From Thermoplasmatota archaeon (GTDB taxonomy: Archaea > Thermoplasmatota > Poseidoniia > Poseidoniales > Thalassarchaeaceae): a stretch of DNA of 58,395 nucleotides. Positions 981 to 58,395 of this stretch are shown here, piece by piece; position 1 is the first letter of the stretch, and each line of letters begins with the position of its first letter. The translations under genes were made by a program, and so were the position numbers. The notes under the pieces are model-generated. The model did not search any database. It was not told the DNA's origin and saw only the letters and a program-made list of their open reading frames with translations. Location of the stretch: contig JAYZFV010000034.1 in assembly GCA_036336595.1 (NCBI GenBank), forward strand, positions 1 through 58,395, given 5' to 3'.

Positions 981-2024
981 ATGATCGTCGCATACGCAGT
1001 GCTGGCGCTGAGCGCTTCGTTTCTCTGCAGCATTCTAGAAGCTGTTTTACTATCAGCGTCGCACGGACACATCGCTGCTCTCAGAGACACTCATCGTAAA
1101 GTCAGTCAGACTTGGACTGCTTGGAAAGAGGACCCTGAGCGCCCTCTCACAGCCATTCTCACACTCAACACCGCTGCTCATACAATCGGGGCTCTCGGGG
1201 TTGGTGCAGAGGTCGAGAACCAATTCGGTGGTGGGCAGGTCATAATCCTCGCTTCAGCCGTACTCACGTTGGCCATACTGCTGCTCAGCGAGATTCTGCC
1301 CAAGACCATCGGAGCACTCTACTGGCGCAGACTAACGATCCCCTCGTACCACATCCTTAGGGTTATGATGGTGCTCCTATGGGTCATCGTAAAGCCAATC
1401 GAGCTGATTCGCTCCTTGCTGCCTCGCGTAGAATCAGCAACTGTTACGCGCAATGAGCTCTCAGTACTTGCTGACATCGCAGAGGAATCGGATGTAATAG
1501 AGGAAGACGAGGAGACCGTTATTCAAAATCTTCTGAAGCTTAGGGAGATCAAGGTGAGCGCCATAATGACTCCCAGGGTAGTCATGACGACCGTCGCTTC
1601 GACCGAAACCGTCGGTGAGGTTCTGGAGAAGATTCCCATCATGATTCACGGAAGGATGCCCGTTACTGGCGATAGTGTTGACGAAGTTAGGGGGCTCGTT
1701 CTCAGGAGCGAGATTCTTAGGAGGGCTGCAGACGATGACTTCACTAAGACCATGGCTGAAATCTCCAGAGTTGCACAAACCTGCAGTACAGAGGACTCGG
1801 TGGACAGGGCGCTTGACATACTACTGGAGAACAAGGAACAGATATTGGTGGCCAAGGACGAGTTTGGAGGCACTGCAGGACTGGTAACAATGGAGGACAT
1901 TATCGAGACTCTTCTTGGCGTCGAAATCGTGGACGAGTCCGACCAAGACGCAATCGACGATGGGGTCCTTCACGAGGATATGAGGGAACTAGCCAAGATT
2001 CGCTATGACTTTGAAGTCGAGTGA
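981..2024 (+). CDS. CNNM/CorC-family membrane protein (DUF21 plus tandem CBS domains), putative Mg2+/Co2+ efflux
   Basis: SFLCSILEAVLLS, AILTLNT, SEILPKT, IMTPR and DEFGGTAGLVTMEDIIETLLG motifs. ATG at 981; TTG at 966 is an alternative start. Confidence 0.9.
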   Translation: MIVAYAVLALSASFLCSILEAVLLSASHGHIAALRDTHRKVSQTWTAWKEDPERPLTAILTLNTAAHTIGALGVGAEVENQFGGGQVIILASAVLTLAILLLSEILPKTIGALYWRRLTIPSYHILRVMMVLLWVIVKPIELIRSLLPRVESATVTRNELSVLADIAEESDVIEEDEETVIQNLLKLREIKVSAIMTPRVVMTTVASTETVGEVLEKIPIMIHGRMPVTGDSVDEVRGLVLRSEILRRAADDDFTKTMAEISRVAQTCSTEDSVDRALDILLENKEQILVAKDEFGGTAGLVTMEDIIETLLGVEIVDESDQDAIDDGVLHEDMRELAKIRYDFEVE

Positions 2025-3873: not shown

Positions 3874-5085
3874 TTATTGCTGCGTTACTTCTGCCCAGCC
3901 CTTCAGTGAAAGGAATGTGGCCATGGCCTCGCTCACCTCAAAGAGGTCCCCCGCGTTGCCCTCGATCCTCTCCCCTGCTACTTCTGCAGTGGCATCGTCG
4001 ATGAGTATCCTGACCGTCATTTGATTTTGCTGACTGAAAACCACGGACTCATTCATGGGATCGAACCTGTTGCTTGTGCTGGGATCCAGCCTATGCAAAG
4101 GAAACTCCGTGACCCTGAGGCCGGACTTTCCATGTAGGCTGCCCACCCATCGAATAACTCTCTTAGTGTCAACCGTGACCGCCTCGTCTGTCTCACCAGC
4201 ACTTCCCATGACTACTGAGGCATCACCCTTGACCAGCTCCCAGAATATTGGAGTGCACGTCTCGCCGAAAACCAACAGTGCCCTATCATCCCGCAGGCGA
4301 CTGACTCGTTCCGGTGACTCAGCCAGTTCGGCGAGCTCCAATATCCTCGCCTTGCCGGAAGATCTAATCTGGCTTCGCGGTAATCTGGCCCTTGTCTTAA
4401 GTATCTCATGGAGCCTCTCGAGGATGATTTTCCTATCCGGTCCCTTCTCTGAGATGACTCTGAGCTGTCCCAACACGGAATCCATACCCAATCTGGCCCT
4501 ATTTCCCCAACTCACGTCTGGTCCTTCCAGAGCAGATTGGACGTCGATCCCCTCCCCTCGGATGTAATTCACAATCTCCCTCCTTGCGTTGGAATCGAGG
4601 TGAAGCAGATTCGGATCCCTCACGTGAATGTGAAATCCCCGGTGTCCGGAGAATGTAGTTTGGACGTATTCCTCCCTGAATCCGAACTCTGGGTGCAGAA
4701 ATTCTGACCATAGCCTCCAGGCCTGATGCTGAATGGTATCAATCATGGCGGGAAAATCAGTATCCGACACACCCGGAAGGTGATCCCCATCGAGATCGAA
4801 GATGAGATCGGCCCCCAGCCAGCCCTTCTCCGACATCTTCCTGTTCGAAGGTCGCTGGTAGTAGGCTGTGCTGTGGAAGCAAGAGTGTGGGGCACGATTC
4901 TGGAGGTAGTGAAGCAGCTCGGTTTTGCTTTGAAAAGCTCTGTGCCTATCTGGAGGGGCCCCGCCCCAGGGAACGAACATCCACTCCCTGGATTTCAGTC
5001 TAGGTGGGGTCCAGAGCGAAGCAGAATCGAGCGAACCGTAGTACTCAGAGAAACGCAACGCGAAGCGGCTCCAACCACCTGCCAT
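3874..5085 (-). CDS. priS: DNA primase small (catalytic) subunit
   Basis: REW, STAYY..P, GADLIFDLD, FSGHRGFH and DEAVTVDTKRVIR..GSLHGK AEP motifs. Confidence 0.95.
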   Translation of the reverse strand: MAGGWSRFALRFSEYYGSLDSASLWTPPRLKSREWMFVPWGGAPPDRHRAFQSKTELLHYLQNRAPHSCFHSTAYYQRPSNRKMSEKGWLGADLIFDLDGDHLPGVSDTDFPAMIDTIQHQAWRLWSEFLHPEFGFREEYVQTTFSGHRGFHIHVRDPNLLHLDSNARREIVNYIRGEGIDVQSALEGPDVSWGNRARLGMDSVLGQLRVISEKGPDRKIILERLHEILKTRARLPRSQIRSSGKARILELAELAESPERVSRLRDDRALLVFGETCTPIFWELVKGDASVVMGSAGETDEAVTVDTKRVIRWVGSLHGKSGLRVTEFPLHRLDPSTSNRFDPMNESVVFSQQNQMTVRILIDDATAEVAGERIEGNAGDLFEVSEAMATFLSLKGWAEVTQQ

Positions 5086-5121
5086 GGATTAGCAAGAGTC
5101 GGGTGGGACATAAGTTTTCAA

Positions 5122-5358
5122 TCAGCCCAGTTGGAGTCCCGTGACTGATTTTCCCTCAGTCGCTGATCCTGCTCCCGTAGCCTCGACATAGGCCTCCCAG
5201 CAGACATACTCGTTGTCCATTACGATTGCCTCGGCGAAAGTTAGGGCCTGTCCAGTGATAGCGCAAACCGGTCCAAGTTGTCCCGATGCAGTGGACAACT
5301 TGCTTGGATCAGGCATGGCATGGCCTGCTACGCTTGATTCTTCATCCTTGCGAACCAA
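5122..5358 (-). CDS. Small hypothetical protein
   Basis: 78-aa ORF filling the gap upstream of priS on the same strand, with CAITG...VCWEAY. The true start may be the internal ATG (MPDPSK). Confidence 0.55.
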   Translation of the reverse strand: MVRKDEESSVAGHAMPDPSKLSTASGQLGPVCAITGQALTFAEAIVMDNEYVCWEAYVEATGAGSATEGKSVTGLQLG

Positions 5359-5404
5359 GTTTCTCCATGCAAACTCATTTCAACTCGATGGCCGGCGAGG
5401 AGCC

Positions 5405-6265
5405 GTGTCAGTCGAACCATTGCTAGTTAGAATCGGGCATTCACCTGACCCTGATGACGCGTTCATGTTCTTTGCACTGACTTCAGGGGCAATAGAGACT
5501 CCAGGACGTGTGTACGAACATTCCCTCGTCGATATCGACACTCTGAATCGAGAGGCCTTGAAGAGCACCTACGAGGTCTCCGCAGTTAGCATTCGCTCGT
5601 TTCCGGATATCTCAGAGGAATACGCCCTGATGAACTGCGGCGCCTCCATGGGCGAGGGATATGGGCCGATGGTCATCTCCAATAATCCAATGACTGAGCA
5701 AGAGGCCAGTGAGAGGACAATTGCAATCCCCGGCTTTAGCACCAGTGCCTTCCTCGCACTGAGGCTGGCACTAGGAGAGGTGAGTGTAGTCGAAGTCCCC
5801 TTCGACGAGATTCTACCGGGTGTGGTCTGTGGGAAGTACGACGTCGGTGTGATCATCCATGAGGGGCAGCTGACGTGGAAGGATGATGGCGTGCATCTCC
5901 TTCTAGACCTCGGTATGTGGTGGAACCAAACAACGGGGCTGCCTTTGCCGCTTGGAGGGAACGTCGTCAGAAAGGACCTGGGCGATAAAGTCTGTAGGGA
6001 AATCACGAGGGATGTCAGAGCGAGCATTAAACACGGCCTGGATAACCCAACGAGGGCTCTTGAGTTCGCACGTCAGTGGGGCAGGGGAATCGATGAAAGC
6101 ACCAACAAGGAGTTCGTATCGATGTATGTGAACGAGCGTTCTCTCGATTATGGCCATGAGGGCCGCGAGGCGATCAGACTATTCTTGGAGAGGGGACAAG
6201 AAATCGGCCTAGTTAGGGAAGACATTGTTGTTCGGGAAATTCAATTCATAGGGTACGATGATTAG
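5405..6265 (+). CDS. mqnD: 1,4-dihydroxy-6-naphthoate synthase (futalosine pathway)
   Basis: GHSPDPDDAFMF, DIDTLN, GASMGEGYGP, IIHEGQLT, LPLPLG and MYVN motifs. GTG at 5405 chosen as start. Confidence 0.92.
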   Translation: MSVEPLLVRIGHSPDPDDAFMFFALTSGAIETPGRVYEHSLVDIDTLNREALKSTYEVSAVSIRSFPDISEEYALMNCGASMGEGYGPMVISNNPMTEQEASERTIAIPGFSTSAFLALRLALGEVSVVEVPFDEILPGVVCGKYDVGVIIHEGQLTWKDDGVHLLLDLGMWWNQTTGLPLPLGGNVVRKDLGDKVCREITRDVRASIKHGLDNPTRALEFARQWGRGIDESTNKEFVSMYVNERSLDYGHEGREAIRLFLERGQEIGLVREDIVVREIQFIGYDD

Positions 6266-6740
6266 TATGGGAGGCAGGAAACCGGATATCAGTGAGTTCG
6301 ACTCAGTCGACCCCGCCCCCCCCAGTGGGGAGGTTAGTATTTCCTCCTTGAGGGAGATCCTGTGCGATGAGGAAGGGCGAATGTTCCTGAGAATGAGGGC
6401 CCTTTTCGCTTTGAGGAACATCGGTGGACAGGATGCCATCGACTCTTTGGCGGCTGCTTTCAATTCCGCCTCTGCCCTACTCAAGCACGAAGTCGCCTAC
6501 GTCATGGGTCAGATGCAAGATGGTCATGCAGTGCATCACCTGATAGAGCGACTAGAGGACAAGGACGAGGATGTAATGGTCAGGCATGAGGCGGCAGAAG
6601 CCCTAGGTGCGATAGGGGACATGACTGCTTTGGCTACACTGGAGAGGTTCAAGGAGGACCCAGAGGAAGTTGTGGCTGATTCCTGCGAAGTTGCCATCGA
6701 CCTCCTCGAGTGGATATCGAGCGAACGTCTCGACTACTAG
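6258..6740 (+). CDS. Half-length deoxyhypusine hydroxylase (DOHH)-like HEAT-repeat protein
   Basis: SVDPAPP, RALFALRN, SALLKHEVAYVMGQMQD, MVRHEAAEALGAIG and VVADSCEVAID match one half of eukaryotic DOHH. The two HE motifs are 33 aa apart. Confidence 0.85.
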   Translation: MISMGGRKPDISEFDSVDPAPPSGEVSISSLREILCDEEGRMFLRMRALFALRNIGGQDAIDSLAAAFNSASALLKHEVAYVMGQMQDGHAVHHLIERLEDKDEDVMVRHEAAEALGAIGDMTALATLERFKEDPEEVVADSCEVAIDLLEWISSERLDY

Positions 6741-6742
6741 GG

Positions 6743-7540
6743 CTAGTCAAAGTTGAACCACGTTGGTCCTTCTTCCAAACCACATACTTCCCTAAGAAAG
6801 TACGACAAGCCCGAGATGCTTCTGCTATCTAGAACGTTGCTGACCTCACGCTCGAAGTAGGATTCCATCCTTTCACTGGTAAAACCGAGCCTCGCGGCTG
6901 CTGCGCCGATGACCGCGGCCCTGACTTTGGAGTCGCTCTCGAAAAGGGAGTATTGTTCCACCATGTCATCATGTGCCTCCCGCACAAGTTCGATAGGTGA
7001 GTCCCTCCTAGCAGCGAAAACTCCGAACACCATGGGCAATCCGGTCCGGTTGGTCCACTCTGCGCCTAGATCTAGTTGCACCAAACCAGGATCATGGCGA
7101 GCGGCAGAAAGGGCTCGGTCACCAATGAGCAAAGCCCCGTCGCAATCCCTCAGCATCGTCTCTATGTCAGGTCCCATCTCCACCAATTTGGGATCCAGAG
7201 TATACCCTTCGAGGAGCCATTTGAGCAGGGATTGAGAGGTTGAGGAGTCAGATGGTAGTGCGATATCCCTCATTGATTCGATCGGCCTGTTGCCGAAGAG
7301 AAGGACAGAGCCGACGTTCCCTTTGCTGACGATGCCGAGATCGGGTATCAGGTGCATCTCATCGGCGTGCAATGCGTAGTCTGCAGTAGGAATGGGGGCT
7401 GTCAGGCAGTCCCTCCTAAGGAGATGGCCGGTTAGCCACGCGGGGGGGGCAGGGAGTACCTCCCATCGACCGCCTAGGGATGAGAAGACGGGGTCGCAAT
7501 TGACGAATGCGACCCGACCTAGAACACGCCTCCACGACAT
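6743..7540 (-). CDS. mqnA: Chorismate dehydratase (futalosine pathway)
   Basis: GRVAFVNCDPV, GNVGSVLLF, SSTS, ALLIGDRAL and DLGAEW..RTGLPMVFGVF motifs. Directly follows mqnE. Confidence 0.9.
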   Translation of the reverse strand: MSWRRVLGRVAFVNCDPVFSSLGGRWEVLPAPPAWLTGHLLRRDCLTAPIPTADYALHADEMHLIPDLGIVSKGNVGSVLLFGNRPIESMRDIALPSDSSTSQSLLKWLLEGYTLDPKLVEMGPDIETMLRDCDGALLIGDRALSAARHDPGLVQLDLGAEWTNRTGLPMVFGVFAARRDSPIELVREAHDDMVEQYSLFESDSKVRAAVIGAAAARLGFTSERMESYFEREVSNVLDSRSISGLSYFLREVCGLEEGPTWFNFD

Positions 7541-7546
7541 GGAGCA

Positions 7547-8695
7547 CTACACCTGGTCGGCAATCGGAAGGGGCAGGTTGGATCGATTCATGGCATCGAA
7601 GAACTCGAGGGATGTATACGTCGAGTTTCTCTTAATCGGGACTAGGCCCGATGCAAGCACTAACTGAGCGATCTCCTCCCTGCTGTAATCCAACCTAGTC
7701 GTACTACCCGCCTCATGCATAATCTCCTCATGTCCCACTGTTCCATCAATGTCGTCAGCACCAGAGTTGATTGCAATAGAAGCCACGTGGTCACCTATGT
7801 TCATTCTGTAAGCTTTGATGTGTGGTATGTTGTCCAAGAGTATCCTAGATGTTGCAATCACCCTTATGACCTCGTTTGCCGAAGCCAGTTGGGCTTCAGG
7901 AAGGCGTGTTTTGTCGGGAAGATATGGGTACGGTACGAAACACTGGAAACCGCCGGAGCCATCCTGTTGCACCCTCAAACGATCGAGGTGGATAATGCGG
8001 TCCTCGACGGTTTCTATGGTGCCGAAAAGCATGGTGCAGTTTGTTGGTATTCCTATTGAATGAGCGGTTCCGTGAATTTCCAGATACTCCTTCGAAAGTT
8101 CCTTTCCACGGCAGATTCGGTCTCTGACCGAGTCTACCAAGATCTCAGCGCCTCCCCCGGGCAATGAGTCCAACCCTGCGTCTTTCAGAAGTTCCAAAGT
8201 CTTCCTGATGGGCAACCCGGATCTCTTAGAGATGTGCTTGATCTCAACAGAAGTGAGTGACTTGATGTGAATTTCTGGAAACCGCGCCTTGATTGATTGG
8301 AATAGATTGGCGTAGTGCTCTACTGTCCACTGAGGATGCAGCCCACCGACAGCGTGTACCTCATCTATGGAGTTGCCGTAAGGCTCGATGCGGGAAACGA
8401 ATTCTTCTGGTGAGAGAGCATAGGATTCGCTATGTCGAGGGCCCTTTCTAAACGCGCAGAACCTACAGGCCAACGTGCAGATATTCGTGGTGTTCACATG
8501 GAGATTGTCATTGAAGAATACATGATCGCCGAACCTAGATCGCTTAATCATATCAGCTAGTGCACAGAGTCCCGCAAGCGAGTTGTGAGTGTGCAGAAAT
8601 ATGCCCTCTTCTACTGTAATTCTATGACCATCAATAACTCTCCTCAGTATCCCACTGAGTAGCGAGTCACGTTGAACGGCGATGGGTGGCACCAT
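7547..8695 (-). CDS. mqnE: Aminodeoxyfutalosine synthase (radical SAM, CofH/MqnE family)
   Basis: CTLACRFC, NLHVNTTNIC, EVHAVGGLHP, SLPGGGAEI, TNCTMLFG, LDNIPHIKAY and GADDIDGT favour MqnE over MqnC. Start is ATG 8695 or 8749. Confidence 0.82.
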   Translation of the reverse strand: MVPPIAVQRDSLLSGILRRVIDGHRITVEEGIFLHTHNSLAGLCALADMIKRSRFGDHVFFNDNLHVNTTNICTLACRFCAFRKGPRHSESYALSPEEFVSRIEPYGNSIDEVHAVGGLHPQWTVEHYANLFQSIKARFPEIHIKSLTSVEIKHISKRSGLPIRKTLELLKDAGLDSLPGGGAEILVDSVRDRICRGKELSKEYLEIHGTAHSIGIPTNCTMLFGTIETVEDRIIHLDRLRVQQDGSGGFQCFVPYPYLPDKTRLPEAQLASANEVIRVIATSRILLDNIPHIKAYRMNIGDHVASIAINSGADDIDGTVGHEEIMHEAGSTTRLDYSREEIAQLVLASGLVPIKRNSTYTSLEFFDAMNRSNLPLPIADQV

Positions 8696-8875
8696 CTTGG
8701 AAAGCCTCAGGTTCCAGCCCGAATTCGTGTGTGACTGGGGGTCGAACATCGAGTTTCGGTGGAACGAGCGGTCAATAGGATTTGAACCCACGTTAGACAG
8801 AGGTATCGCTATGTAGGGCAGTTGAAAAATATCAATAGCCCGCGTTGTATCATCGAGCATAGAGGAGAATCGCCG

Positions 8876-54851: not shown

Positions 54852-55253
54852 CTAGTGGTCCCTACTGATCTTGTAGCGGCCCATGGCTTCCACCCACTGG
54901 ATCTCGCCGCCGGACTGGAGGTTCATGCCCTCCTCGACGGGGAGGATTAGGGTCTGGTAGGTCTTGTTGTCCATGGCATGGACCTCGTTGCCCTGGATGT
55001 GGGTGATGATGGCCGAGCCCTTCTCGATGATTGGGATGTGGATGCTGTCGGTCACAGTTCCAACGTGGGACCGCTTCTGACTGGTGAAGATGTCCTCCAG
55101 CTCGATCCTGGCCTTTGCAGAGCCGTGCTTGCCCGGCTTGGACTTGGACATGCTCAGGATCTTGAAGGCGTCGTTGTCGATCGCCACGTAGCGACCGACC
55201 TTCAGGGTCCTGATCTCCGCACGCGTAGTCCCAGGCACGAACCCTTGGTCCAA
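54852..55253 (-). CDS. eif5a: Translation factor aIF5A
   Basis: SKSKPGKHGSAKAR hypusine-site loop (Lys42) and IFT..KR. TTG start. Confidence 0.96.
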   Translation of the reverse strand: MDQGFVPGTTRAEIRTLKVGRYVAIDNDAFKILSMSKSKPGKHGSAKARIELEDIFTSQKRSHVGTVTDSIHIPIIEKGSAIITHIQGNEVHAMDNKTYQTLILPVEEGMNLQSGGEIQWVEAMGRYKISRDH

Positions 55254-55341: not shown

Positions 55342-58300
55342 TCAGTCGTCCTTGCGGCGTCCTAGCATGGCAGCGCCGAGCACGGAGATCGCAGCGAGCA
55401 CGGACGGGAATCCGGGCGTGAAGCCAAGCTCGGGTTGCGCGTTCTCTCCCTTAGCGGCCTCAGACCTGCTGTCGGACGTGTCGATGGCGTCACAGTCACC
55501 GTCGCCGTCGAAGTCGGAGGGCGTCGAGCTCAGCTTCTTGCTGTCGGTGCCGCAGGCGGCCTCGACAGAGTCGCTGTAGCCGTCGCCATCGTCGTCGTCG
55601 TCGGTGTTGTCGCCTATGCCATCGCCGTCGGTGTCGTCCCACTCAGTTGGGTCGAGCGGGTACGGGTCCGCTTCGTTGAGCTCGCCGTCGCCGTCCTGGT
55701 CTGGGTCAGCGTTGTCGCCGATGTTGTCACCGTCGGTGTCGAGCCACTCCGCGCTGTTCTGCGGGAACGCGTCGTCGGCGTTGCTGACGCCGTCCTCGTC
55801 CATGTCCGAATCGGCGTTGTCACCGATGCCGTCGCCGTCCAAGTCCCTCGACTCGTTGGGGTCCATCGGGAATGCGTCGAGGCCGTCGGGGACCCCGTCG
55901 TTGTCGTCGTCGGGGTCAGAGCCGTCGCCGAGGCCGTCGCCGTCTTCGTCCGCTGTCTCGGTAGCATCGAGCGGGAAGGCGTCCTCGAAGTCGGCTTCGC
56001 CGTCGTTGTCGTCGTCGGTGTCCTCGTTGTCCCCTATCCCGTCGCCGTCGTTGTCGTTCCACTCGTTCGGGTCGTTCGGGGCCCAGTCGGATACGTCAGG
56101 CACGCCGTCGTTGTCGTCGTCGGTGTCGGACTCGTCGTCCGCCCCGTCGCCGTCGTTGTCGGAGCTGGCTTCCGGGTCCATGTCGAACTGGTCGACGTCG
56201 TTGGGTATACCGTCGCCGTCTGTGTCGTTGTCGGAGTTGTCGCCGATCCCGTCACCGTCCAGGTCCTCCCACTCGGTTGAATCGAACGGGAACTCGTCCA
56301 GGGCGTCTGTCACGCCGTCGTTGTCGTCGTCGTTGTCGGCGTTGTCGCCGGTCCCGTCGCCGTCGTTGTCGTAGGCCTCGCTGGGATCGAATGGGAACAG
56401 GTCCCACACCGTGTCCTCGCCAGACCATCCCGGGTTCTCCAGGCCAAGCTCGTCGAGGAATCCGTCCTCGCATCCTGGCCCTGCCTCACAGTTGTTCAGC
56501 TCCCAGTACTCGTCGAAGCCGATGGTGCTGCTGTTGTCGGCATCGAACATGAGTAGGTACTCCCAGGTCCAGTTGAACTCCTCCTCGGAGAGGCCGGCGC
56601 CGAACTCGTCTTCGTGGTACTCGTCCTCGCCGTCGGAGCAGTCGTCGAAGCCGTCGTTGACCAGGTCCATCGAGATGTTGGTGCCGTCGAAGCAGTCGAA
56701 CCAGTTGTCGGTCACGCCGTCCGGCTCGGTGCCGTTCTCGCCGCCGCCCATCCAGTCCTGTGGCTCGTCCTCGCCGTTGGGGCAGTCCTCCCAGCCGTCG
56801 TTGACCCACTCGAACGGGATCTCGTACTCGGTGCCGTTGTCGTGGCATACGAAGGTGTGCCCTTCTTCCTCGACACTCAGGTCGCCGCCAAAGTAGACGA
56901 ACAGCTCGGCCCAATCGACCTCGCCGTCGTCGGAGCTGTCGGCTGCGTTGAAGTTGTCAACCAAGCAGTCCAGGAACCCGTCATCGTCGAAGTCATCGTC
57001 GAAGAAGTAGGATTCGCAATCGATGGGGTTGGAGACTCCGTCGTTGTCCAGGTCGTCGTCCAACGCGTCGCAGATCCAGTCGTAGTCCATGTCGACCGGT
57101 TCGTCGCTGGCGTTGAGATCGTCAGACCCACAGAGCCACTCTTCCACGTCGCCCCATCCGTCGCCGTCGTCGTCCCAGTCCTCGTACCAGCCGCTGTCGT
57201 CGCAGTTGACGATGAACTCGGGGTCACCAGACCCGCTCATGTCGTAATCGCCGCTCATGACCCAATCGGGTGCGCCGTCGCCGTCGGTGTCCATCGCTAC
57301 GCAGGGATCGTTCGGATCCATGTCGTAGTCGTCCATGACGCCGTCGTTGTCGTCGTCGGTGTCGTTGTTGACCCAAGTCTGCGATATCGGCAGGGTGATG
57401 TCGTCCACCCAGACCGTGTCGTCGTAGCTGCTGACGCTGAAGTCCTTGTAGTACATCCACTCGAAGGTGTGGTACCCAGCAGAGATGGTCCCGGATTGGG
57501 TCCCGCTCGTCAGGCCTGACCAGCTGTTCACCAGGCTCCCGTCTAGGTAGAAGCGCAGGTAGTCCCAGTAGCCCTCGGTCGATGTCTCGTACGCGAACGA
57601 GTAGGTGCCACCCAGCGTGTCGATGCTCAGCTCGAGAGAGCTCGTCTCGGCATCGTCGATGTCGCCGGACTGCGCACTGAAGCTGCCGTTTATCACCACG
57701 TTGGACTGCACGAACCACTCCGCGTCGCCGAAGGTGGTCCAGCCGGACGGGATCGCCCCGCCCTCGAAGTTGCCCATGAAGGGCGGGTCGCCGTTGAAGT
57801 CGGGGATGCCGTCGCCGTCGTTGTCAGCCCAAGCAGTGCCGTCGTACGGGAACGGGTCGTTCTCGTCCATCACGTTGTCACCGTCGTCGTCCGGGTCAGC
57901 GTCGTCGCCGAGCCCGTCTCCGTCAGTGTCCACACAGTCGGAGTCATCGAGCGGAAGGTCGTCCTCGTCGTCGGGGCAGCCGTCGTTGTCGTCGTCGTCG
58001 TCGGCGTTGTCGCCGATTCCGTCGCCGTCCGCGTCGGTCGTCTCGTTGCCGTCCAGGGGCATGTCGTCGTTGTAGTCGTACACGCCGTCGTTGTCGTCGT
58101 CGGCGTCCTGGTTGTCGCAGTAGCCGTCGCCGTCGGTGTCGACCTGCTCGCCTGCATCGGTCGGGCAATCGTCGTCCACGTCGTCGACGCCGTCAGCGTC
58201 GTCGTCCATGTCCTCGATGTTGCAGTCGTCCGTCTCGTTGCCGTCGTCGTCGAGGTCGCACTCGCCCGAGCCCAGAACCAAGTACGGGAACACGATGTTG

Positions 58301-58395
58301 TCGAGCATGACCCTGTCGTCACCCACTGACACCGTGTCATCCTTTGCGTAGGTCCAAGTGAAGGTGTGCACGCCTGCGTCGACCCAGCCCTCGTA
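55342..58395 (-). CDS. Large acidic Ca2+-binding cell-surface protein with thrombospondin type-3 repeats and a PGF-CTERM anchor (5' end outside the window)
   Basis: Many [19 protein letters not shown] repeats, and C-terminus [25 protein letters not shown]. The frame is open to the window edge ([11 protein letters not shown]...). Confidence 0.9.
55480..56400 (-). repeat. Array of thrombospondin type-3-like Asp-rich repeats (coding)
   Basis: Recurrent ~35-aa unit E..D.DGDG.GDN.D.DDDNDG..D..D.FP.D. At DNA level this gives (GTC)n-rich repeats on the plus strand. A second array lies at about 57790-58260. Confidence 0.85.

Follow-up and report, generated by a model that had tools for sequence, protein, structure and literature searches.

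Eukaryotic deoxyhypusine hydroxylase (DOHH) is described, in passages of PMC8153317 and PMC9117371, as an enzyme in which each of two lobes supplies two histidines and one glutamate to one iron, with the two irons meeting between the lobes. For the human enzyme, a passage of PMC9117371 names H56, H89, E90, H207, H240, and E241 as iron ligands and E57, E90, E208, E241, 'G65', and G214 as the residues that bind the deoxyhypusine side chain. Archaea are credited with deoxyhypusine synthase (DHS) and with no DOHH homolog, and the hydroxylation step is called unsolved for that reason. Here, we describe a 160-amino-acid protein encoded on contig JAYZFV010000034.1 (assembly GCA_036336595.1) of a Thalassarchaeaceae archaeon (Thermoplasmatota, Poseidoniales), which was analyzed over its whole length of 58,395 nucleotides, referred to here as the window. 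Judged by its sequence, the protein is a clear homolog of eukaryotic DOHH that corresponds to one lobe. It would be the first credible archaeal DOHH homolog, in a single-lobe form. A preliminary description of the window had held that no archaeal DOHH ortholog is generally recognized, and sections of papers from 2016 (PMC5178350), 2018 (PMC6105217), and 2021 (PMC8153317) agree that there is no DOHH homolog in archaea. A passage of PMC7432094 (2020) similarly says that homologs 'have not been identified' and mentions hypusine in anaerobes, excerpts of PMC6105217 give no DOHH-like protein among the proteins that co-purify with aIF5A in Sulfolobus, and two 2026 reviews add nothing further on archaeal DOHH. 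The literature searched, which did not extend to subscription journals and supplements, yielded no description of a DOHH that is archaeal or half-size, so an earlier mention is possible.

The open reading frame (ORF) begins with ATG, and its translation is identical to the sequence quoted in the preliminary description, which had claimed a 160-residue HEAT protein with two His-Glu (HE) pairs. The frame, the motifs, and the spacing of 33 residues from His77 to His110 were verified, and the motifs SVDPAPP, FALRN, and SCEVAIDLLEW are all in the sequence. The gene and its key residues are as follows:

6258..6740, forward strand: single-unit DOHH homolog, 160 amino acids from the ATG at 6258, with four HEAT hairpins (eight helices)
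6309..6323, forward strand: N-terminal tail motif D18-P-A-P-P22, identical to the motif that links the two lobes in eukaryotic DOHH
6486..6491, forward strand: His77-Glu78, the first HE motif, aligning with human H56-E57 and H207-E208
6507..6509, forward strand: Gly84 (His77+7), aligning with human G214 (H207+7), which is reported to be required for binding the substrate
6585..6590, forward strand: His110-Glu111, the second HE motif, aligning with human H89-E90 and H240-E241

The true start is probably the second ATG, at 6267 (giving 157 amino acids), because orthologs of 159 amino acids begin to align at query residue 4. This ATG sits 1 nt past the TAG (6263-6265) that ends the upstream gene; a start at 6258 gives an 8-nt overlap with that gene. 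Three small marine metatranscriptome runs from one study, available as short contigs, contained a 271-nt contig that spans 6300-6570 within the DOHH-half gene with 0 differences and two more that match the upstream gene, none of them spanning the gene junction; these libraries may contain DNA, and the matches do not establish transcription. The genome from which the window comes (1.34 Mb, 86% complete) has one copy of the gene and no second HEAT paralog at E ≤ 0.01, and a heterodimer with such a paralog was dropped on that account. In a congeneric genome (G243), the ortholog at locus L004 (G243:C36, approximately 1494-1953, forward strand) is 83% identical, and a TGA replaces the Trp of ...LLEW so that the final 9 residues are gone. 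Strain variation, an error, or incipient decay could each account for this early stop.

The best sequence match in the PDB was human DOHH (4d4z_A; phmmer E-value of 8.9e-71), to which the archaeal unit aligned twice, once on each half. Query residues 27-154 aligned with chain residues 11-138 at 111.9 bits, and residues 6-152 aligned with chain residues 141-287 at 128.9 bits, the latter alignment taking in the linker SVDPAPP. An AlphaFold2 model made from a 22-row alignment (pLDDT of 93.1, eight helices) has 4d4z as its best match among solved structures (TMq of 0.92, rmsd of 1.0 Å, 50% identity), and the next matches are designed alphaRep proteins with a TM score of approximately 0.7. The similarity runs over the full length of the protein and is above that to any other HEAT protein. 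Of 6786 candidate relatives with a length of 281-2000 amino acids, 1902 matched, and the named entries among the 120 listed are all eukaryotic DOHH of approximately 300 amino acids with 43-52% identity. Candidates of 88-280 amino acids matched nearly always (2055 of 2254); the 120 listed, from metagenome-assembled genomes (MAGs) of Euryarchaeota or Thermoplasmatota, span 151-162 amino acids, and their NCBI titles are 'HEAT repeat domain-containing protein' or 'PBS lyase'. JGI/IMG names some homologs 'deoxyhypusine monooxygenase', as do names of ESM Atlas clusters, all of these being automatic labels. An exhaustive search of representatives returned 25,278 proteins at E ≤ 1e-3, with a weak tail of generic HEAT proteins, and 514 at E ≤ 1e-30.

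We compared 31 archaeal sequences from approximately ten families; in alignment A1, which has 22 rows, the numbering is the full-length number minus 9. Both HE motifs are conserved without exception (31/31, and 22/22 in A1), which answers a check on orthologs proposed in the preliminary description. Gly84 and the motif MVRHE..E..G are conserved to the same extent (31/31 and 22/22). Also invariant are the GQ 7 residues past the first His and the Ser of ESCEVALD, and within the tail motif DPAPP the D and first P are invariant while the A and second P are conserved in at least 90%. By alignment, the human iron ligands and side-chain residues map to H77, E78, H110, E111, and G84; the two HE motifs, 33 residues apart, align with both human pairs from which the iron ligands come, and E78, E111, and G84, which align with the deoxyhypusine side-chain residues, do not vary. 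The N-lobe counterpart of G214 by the His+7 rule is residue 63. The eight repeats, two lobes, and four HE motifs in approximately 300 amino acids of DOHH are represented by half that set, two HE motifs in 160 amino acids.

To compare lobes, 98 two-unit proteins were split with a hidden Markov model of the archaeal unit and reduced to a 133-column core. Mean core identity between archaeal units and N lobes was 41.2% and between archaeal units and C lobes 43.9%, compared to 37.2% between N and C lobes (38.1% within one protein). Among archaeal units the mean pairwise core identity was 54.6%, and their internal divergence is as deep as that among eukaryotic lobes. All 36 positions that are conserved in at least 60% and identical in N and C lobes hold the same residue in the 15 archaeal rows taken for this comparison. 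For the 5 positions that distinguish N from C lobes, the archaeal unit agrees with C at 2 and with N at 1 and is variable at 2, and its one-sided matches number 11 with C and 6 with N. These identities and this mosaic of diagnostic positions bear out an earlier remark that the protein mixes hallmarks of both halves.

Since each chain carries one lobe, an active site of the DOHH type must come from a symmetric homodimer. We predicted complexes of two copies (alignment A1) with two Fe ions in three runs, alongside three controls. The homodimer reached ipSAE values of 0.89, 0.90, and 0.91 while the controls reached 0.00, 0.00, and 0.02; the predicted interface is symmetric and lies on the HE-bearing face, with a partner pLDDT of at least 91 and at least 80% of contacts in common. 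The mark was reached by 20/30 proteins solved as one-chain pairs and 1/23 solved as single chains, in a calibration set-up from which our own alignment and the accompanying Fe ions depart. The modelled interface comprises residues 17-21 (the DPAPP tail), 41-43, 46, Ser72-Leu74, Gly84-Gln85, 87, 106-107, His110, 114, 117-118, and 137-152, and the tail of one copy contacts residues 145 and 149 of the other (in A1 numbering, 10-12 against 136 and 140). In this model the tail would act as a clasp on the partner's last helix, and the C-terminus of one subunit would lie beside the N-terminal tail of the other. The homodimer prediction that the preliminary description had asked for thus exceeds its controls (0.90 compared to 0.02 for the best control), in a way that may mirror likeness to 4d4z, and the protein probably works as a homodimer.

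We consider it likely that the protein is a homodimeric di-iron hydroxylase that acts on aIF5A, a reading close to the single-unit homodimeric DOHH put forward earlier and supported in silico by homology, HE conservation, architecture, and the dimer model. We infer iron binding, activity, and substrate from the relationship to the eukaryotic enzyme. Two identical subunits, related by a two-fold axis, would meet head to head, and each would bind one iron through His77, His110, and Glu111. The two irons at the interface would form an O2-activating di-iron center, as between the N- and C-lobes of the eukaryotic enzyme, and the deoxyhypusine side chain would enter a pocket lined by Glu78 and Gly84 from each subunit. 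Deoxyhypusine made by the canonical DHS on Lys42 of aIF5A would then be converted to hypusine by the half-size DOHH. Each DPAPP tail would clasp the last helix of the other subunit, bringing each C-terminus to the N-terminus of its partner. This tail geometry would suit a tandem duplication and fusion that gave rise to the single-chain eukaryotic enzyme, with DPAPP as the linker.

The phylum of the window was surveyed in 401 genomes with matches at E ≤ 1e-10. Of the 110 matching genomes one (G301, locus L034) has a generic HEAT protein without HE motifs, leaving 109 carriers. By family (f numbers), these are 22/36 genomes of the window's own family (f1) in addition to the window's own genome, 52/58 of f2, 18/19 of f28, 7/9 of f9, 3/3 of f25, 2/6 of f27, 1/1 of f17, and one each in f32, f33, and f47. 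A two-unit DOHH gene was found in none of the 401 genomes and every match is one unit; the window copy is therefore not a truncation, a point on which the preliminary description had made its reading depend. Some matches lie in longer open frames, which, apart from one case (G092, below), stem from upstream read-through in genomes rich in GC. A scan of genome contigs gave 411 related loci, and the 80 listed are of the Poseidoniales type (Thalassarchaeaceae/Poseidoniales, Marine Group II). Homologs of a divergent member (L027) carry names from Euryarchaeota, Thermoplasmatota, and Methanobacteriota. Such patchiness points to recurrent loss or to transfer inside the phylum. Two observations from wider searches are set apart from these counts: the L027 search returned one 6670-base contig under a questionable 'Halobacteriales archaeon' label, equal in length to a contig of G103, a genome placed in the window's phylum, and the ESM Atlas lists HEAT clusters of approximately 165-170 amino acids from Bathyarchaeota and Nitrososphaerota (0.95-0.96) that are at most candidate relatives.

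The range of the gene follows that of the heme-copper oxidase COX1 (PF00115), which by hand count in the same 401 genomes is present in 104/109 carriers and 71/292 non-carriers. The carriers without COX1 are G149, G363, G276, G064, and G307, and all carrier families have COX1. Families free of COX1 also lack the half-size DOHH (f4 0/14, f18 0/24, and f15 0/53, one generic HEAT match having been removed); in f5 it is found in 0/48 genomes, two of which give marginal COX1 matches. This association fits an O2-dependent enzyme and is suggestive.

The presumed substrate is encoded in the window itself:

54852..55253, reverse strand: aIF5A, 133 amino acids, TTG start, 117 bits to TIGR00037 (over the cut-off)

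Its loop reads KPGKHGSAK, with the codon of the modifiable Lys42 at 55128-55130. The PF01287 profile gave no aIF5A match in the genome and also missed a Haloferax control; the aIF5A of the window was found with TIGR00037. A canonical DHS is encoded on genome contig C67 (294 bits to PF01916; E-value of 1.8e-77 to the archaeal DHS 8put, with GGGISKHH aligned). Both pathway partners are thus in the genome. The genome also holds a divergent second gene of the DHS family (C56:46892-47788, reverse strand; locus L003:1489-2463, reverse strand), with 143 bits to PF01916 and an E-value of 1e-16 to Pyrococcus DHS 7cmc. It has VGGGIAGDF in place of GGGISKHH, with the Lys of the motif replaced. The Lys of the DHS GG..KH motif is, we take it, the catalytic residue, and this second DHS may, by its sequence, be a non-catalytic or differently acting paralog.

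Around the DOHH-half gene are genes of the type found in the futalosine pathway:

5213..6265, forward strand: PF02621 gene (MqnA/MqnD-type, futalosine pathway), directly upstream, abutting or overlapping the start of the DOHH-half gene
6743..7540, reverse strand: another PF02621 gene, in convergent orientation to the DOHH-half gene
7547..8860, reverse strand: radical-SAM MqnE/MqnC-like gene (CofH family), by Pfam and NCBIfam

At E ≤ 0.01, no NCBIfam model matches either of the PF02621 proteins. Because the genes abut or overlap, the upstream PF02621 gene and the DOHH-half gene are probably co-transcribed. A PF02621 gene is directly upstream in 79/80 Thalassarchaeaceae loci, with a gap or overlap of mostly -44 to +13 nt and none fused, and in 2/2 loci of the sister family f2. 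The futalosine cluster, within 3874-8860, adjoins the gene for the DNA primase small subunit, and the order primase, PF02621, half-size DOHH, PF02621, radical SAM is found in 60/80 loci and partially in others. Locus L033 (G092:C2, 2483-3865, reverse strand) has PF02621 and the half-size DOHH in a single 463-amino-acid frame, which is a natural fusion or an assembly error and is not seen in the 79 other loci. Elsewhere the surroundings differ: in f17, f28, and f47 the neighbors of the gene are alanine racemase, a protein kinase, and unnamed ORFs. Furthermore, across the 401 genomes the half-size DOHH is present in 18/19 genomes of f28 and 2/6 of f27, in which PF02621 is present in 0/19 and 0/6, respectively, and in f34 PF02621 is common and the half-size DOHH was not found. 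Because these profiles dissociate, the gene is independent of the Mqn pathway. A menaquinone-linked function was mostly rejected by this phyletic profile.

Several other explanations have to be weighed. The NCBI titles, and Pfam matches of the window protein that are limited to HEAT_PBS and HEAT_2, would suit a non-catalytic HEAT adaptor or a PBS-lyase-like protein. However, the window protein falls far below the NCBIfam equivalog cut-offs for NblB (40.6 bits, cut-off of 300), CpcE (26.3, cut-off of 330), and CpeY (15, cut-off of 600), and phmmer E-values are 1.4e-4 for MTH187, 7e-4 for CpcE, and 0.017 for YibA. The best designed alphaRep HEAT protein in the PDB reached 5.1e-45, summed over many repeats, which leaves the DOHH match (8.9e-71) approximately 25 orders of magnitude better, and generic HEAT units (locus L034 and the outgroup units used below) are without HE motifs. 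A PBS-lyase identity is rejected on the NCBIfam scores; in the profile and pairwise searches the protein groups with DOHH and away from PBS lyases, and we regard an adaptor of this kind as very unlikely. An artefact, in the form of a mis-binned or mis-assembled fragment of a eukaryotic DOHH or a truncated gene, would account for an identity to animal and algal DOHH of approximately 50%, which is unusually high for an archaeal-eukaryotic pair. Yet the contig around the gene is 58 kb of archaeal DNA, in which the gene sits between the primase small subunit and Mqn genes, in an order shared by 79/80 independent public assemblies that include 1.6-Mb contigs, a genome of 2.06 Mb in a single contig, and two records without a MAG label; no two-unit version was seen in the 401 genomes, and the archaeal units are not nested in crown eukaryotic clades. 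Eukaryotic contamination or truncation was rejected on the phylum survey and the independent long contigs, and we give it hardly any credence.

The alternatives that accept a DOHH fold concern what the protein does. It might be a homodimeric di-iron oxygenase with another substrate, such as a step of the futalosine pathway, an aminoalkylated protein, or a polyamine; the PF02621 gene upstream in nearly all Poseidoniales loci, the joined frame in G092, and a gene that never adjoins aIF5A or DHS in the loci examined all point this way. To our knowledge, the known futalosine pathway needs no hydroxylation. Against another substrate, the Mqn linkage is limited to Poseidoniales, f28 and f27 carry the gene without PF02621 and f34 the reverse, the reported deoxyhypusine side-chain residues are invariant, and the retention of 36/36 shared lobe positions is hard to square with a change of substrate. 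We think this unlikely. A unit that acts alone or is a decaying relic, either a monomer with one or no iron or an inactive lobe, would be consistent with a chain that holds two of four HE motifs, with the loss of the gene from several genera, and with the G243 frame that stops 9 codons early at a TGA. Conservation across approximately ten families, with 54.6% mean core identity and invariant catalytic residues, argues for selection on the metal site instead, and the modelled homodimer (0.90 compared to 0.02 for the control) uses the HE-bearing surface as its predicted interface, as do the lobes of human DOHH; a lone unit or relic is in our view decidedly improbable. The hydroxylase acting on aIF5A remains our preferred reading, and several points weigh against it. 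In the loci examined, neither aIF5A nor DHS adjoins the gene, which in Poseidoniales lies within the futalosine cluster. Of the 36 other genomes of the window's family, 14 gave no match, among them all those of the genera g2 (0/2), g3 (0/1), g7 (0/5), and g9 (0/4). The aerobic families f3 (0/10), f21 (0/9), and f22 (0/5) gave none either, and f34, in which the gene is likewise not found, is aerobic with a heme-copper oxidase. Because aerobic families and four genera of the window's own family are without it, the gene is dispensable; DOHH is dispensable in yeast as well, according to passages of PMC5178350 and PMC8153317. The association with COX1 goes no further than suggestion because related genomes are not independent, and the dimer score may stem from what the model learned of the human structure with its two lobes; it speaks for likeness and not for binding. 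Lastly, a strictly symmetric site would have to accommodate an asymmetric substrate.

We addressed the origin of the unit with a quick IQ-TREE search of 99 rows by 133 columns, comprising 23 archaeal units (8 near-identical f1 rows were excluded) and both lobes of 38 two-unit proteins (5 named and 33 random from 82 with few gaps). N lobes fall on one side of a branch (SH-aLRT of 93) and C lobes likewise (93), with the archaeal rows central. The free tree placed the archaeal rows in two groups; a tree constrained to hold them together has a log-likelihood 38.5 above the free search (p-AU of 0.931). Because the constrained search found the better tree, the split in the free tree is not real evidence, and three clades, archaeal, N, and C, fit the data. 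A recent transfer from a modern eukaryote is excluded because the archaeal unit is not nested in the crown eukaryotic lobes. The three-clade tree is unrooted and therefore fits a relic and an ancient capture of a stem C-lobe alike. With two generic HEAT units as outgroup, the root falls inside the archaeal group, but with weak support (68-73) and an outgroup branch of 1.66.

It is possible, and we propose it only tentatively, that the archaeal unit is a surviving pre-duplication DOHH and that eukaryotic DOHH arose by tandem duplication and fusion of the homodimer subunit, in which case the DPAPP clasp would have become the inter-lobe linker. We reasoned so because the unit is closer to each lobe than the lobes are to one another, makes up a clade of its own apart from the crown N and C lobes, has diverged within archaea as deeply as the eukaryotic lobes, and in the model has a C-terminus that adjoins the partner's tail. 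An ancient transfer of a stem-eukaryotic C-lobe together with its linker would explain the shared linker motif and the preference for C over N at diagnostic positions (2 compared to 1) and in one-sided matches (11 compared to 6). If the unit does predate the duplication, O2-dependent completion of hypusine would predate eukaryotes and persist in aerobic Thermoplasmatota.

One further gene of the window is recorded here. On the reverse strand, 55342-58371 encodes an extremely acidic protein of 1009 amino acids with Asp-rich repeats of the DxDGDGxGDNxD type, which are calcium-binding-like, and a hydrophobic C-terminal anchor; by these features it is presumably a cell-surface protein.

Overall, these data place a clear DOHH homolog, in a minimal one-lobe form, in archaea that are among the most abundant in the plankton of the surface ocean, and they provide a candidate first archaeal DOHH that is easy to test. 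Hypusine in Sulfolobus or in anaerobic archaea is not explained by the half-size DOHH. Within Thermoplasmatota, the gene may serve as a marker that ties full hypusination to aerobic life. The protein would also offer a natural experiment on the making of a pseudo-symmetric di-iron enzyme from a symmetric dimer, with a plausible route by duplication and fusion to the eukaryotic form.

Among described proteins, the PBS-lyase HEAT-like group (CpcE/CpcF, NblB, E. coli YibA, and MTH187) has the HEAT_PBS/HEAT_2 families in common with the window protein, and MTH187 is of similar size. These proteins have no HE metal motifs and score weakly in sequence, whereas the window protein has both HE motifs. 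Archaeal hypusination as described so far, with DHS only, is the pathway in which the window protein would act, and aIF5A with its Lys loop and a canonical DHS are both in this genome. The eukaryotic DOHH proteins (human 4d4z/4d50, yeast Lia1, and Drosophila nero) differ in having two lobes in approximately 300 amino acids, with 8 repeats and 4 HE motifs, compared to one lobe of 157-160 amino acids with 4 repeats and 2 HE motifs. They differ also in that the host here is archaeal, that some close relatives can do without the gene, and that in Poseidoniales it is probably co-transcribed with futalosine genes. The eukaryotic and archaeal proteins nevertheless share the HEAT-hairpin fold, the HE-33-HE spacing, the GQ at the first His+7, MVRHEAAEALG, ESCEVALD, and the DPAPP linker motif, and the predicted subunit interface of the archaeal protein uses the HE face, as is the case between the lobes of human DOHH.

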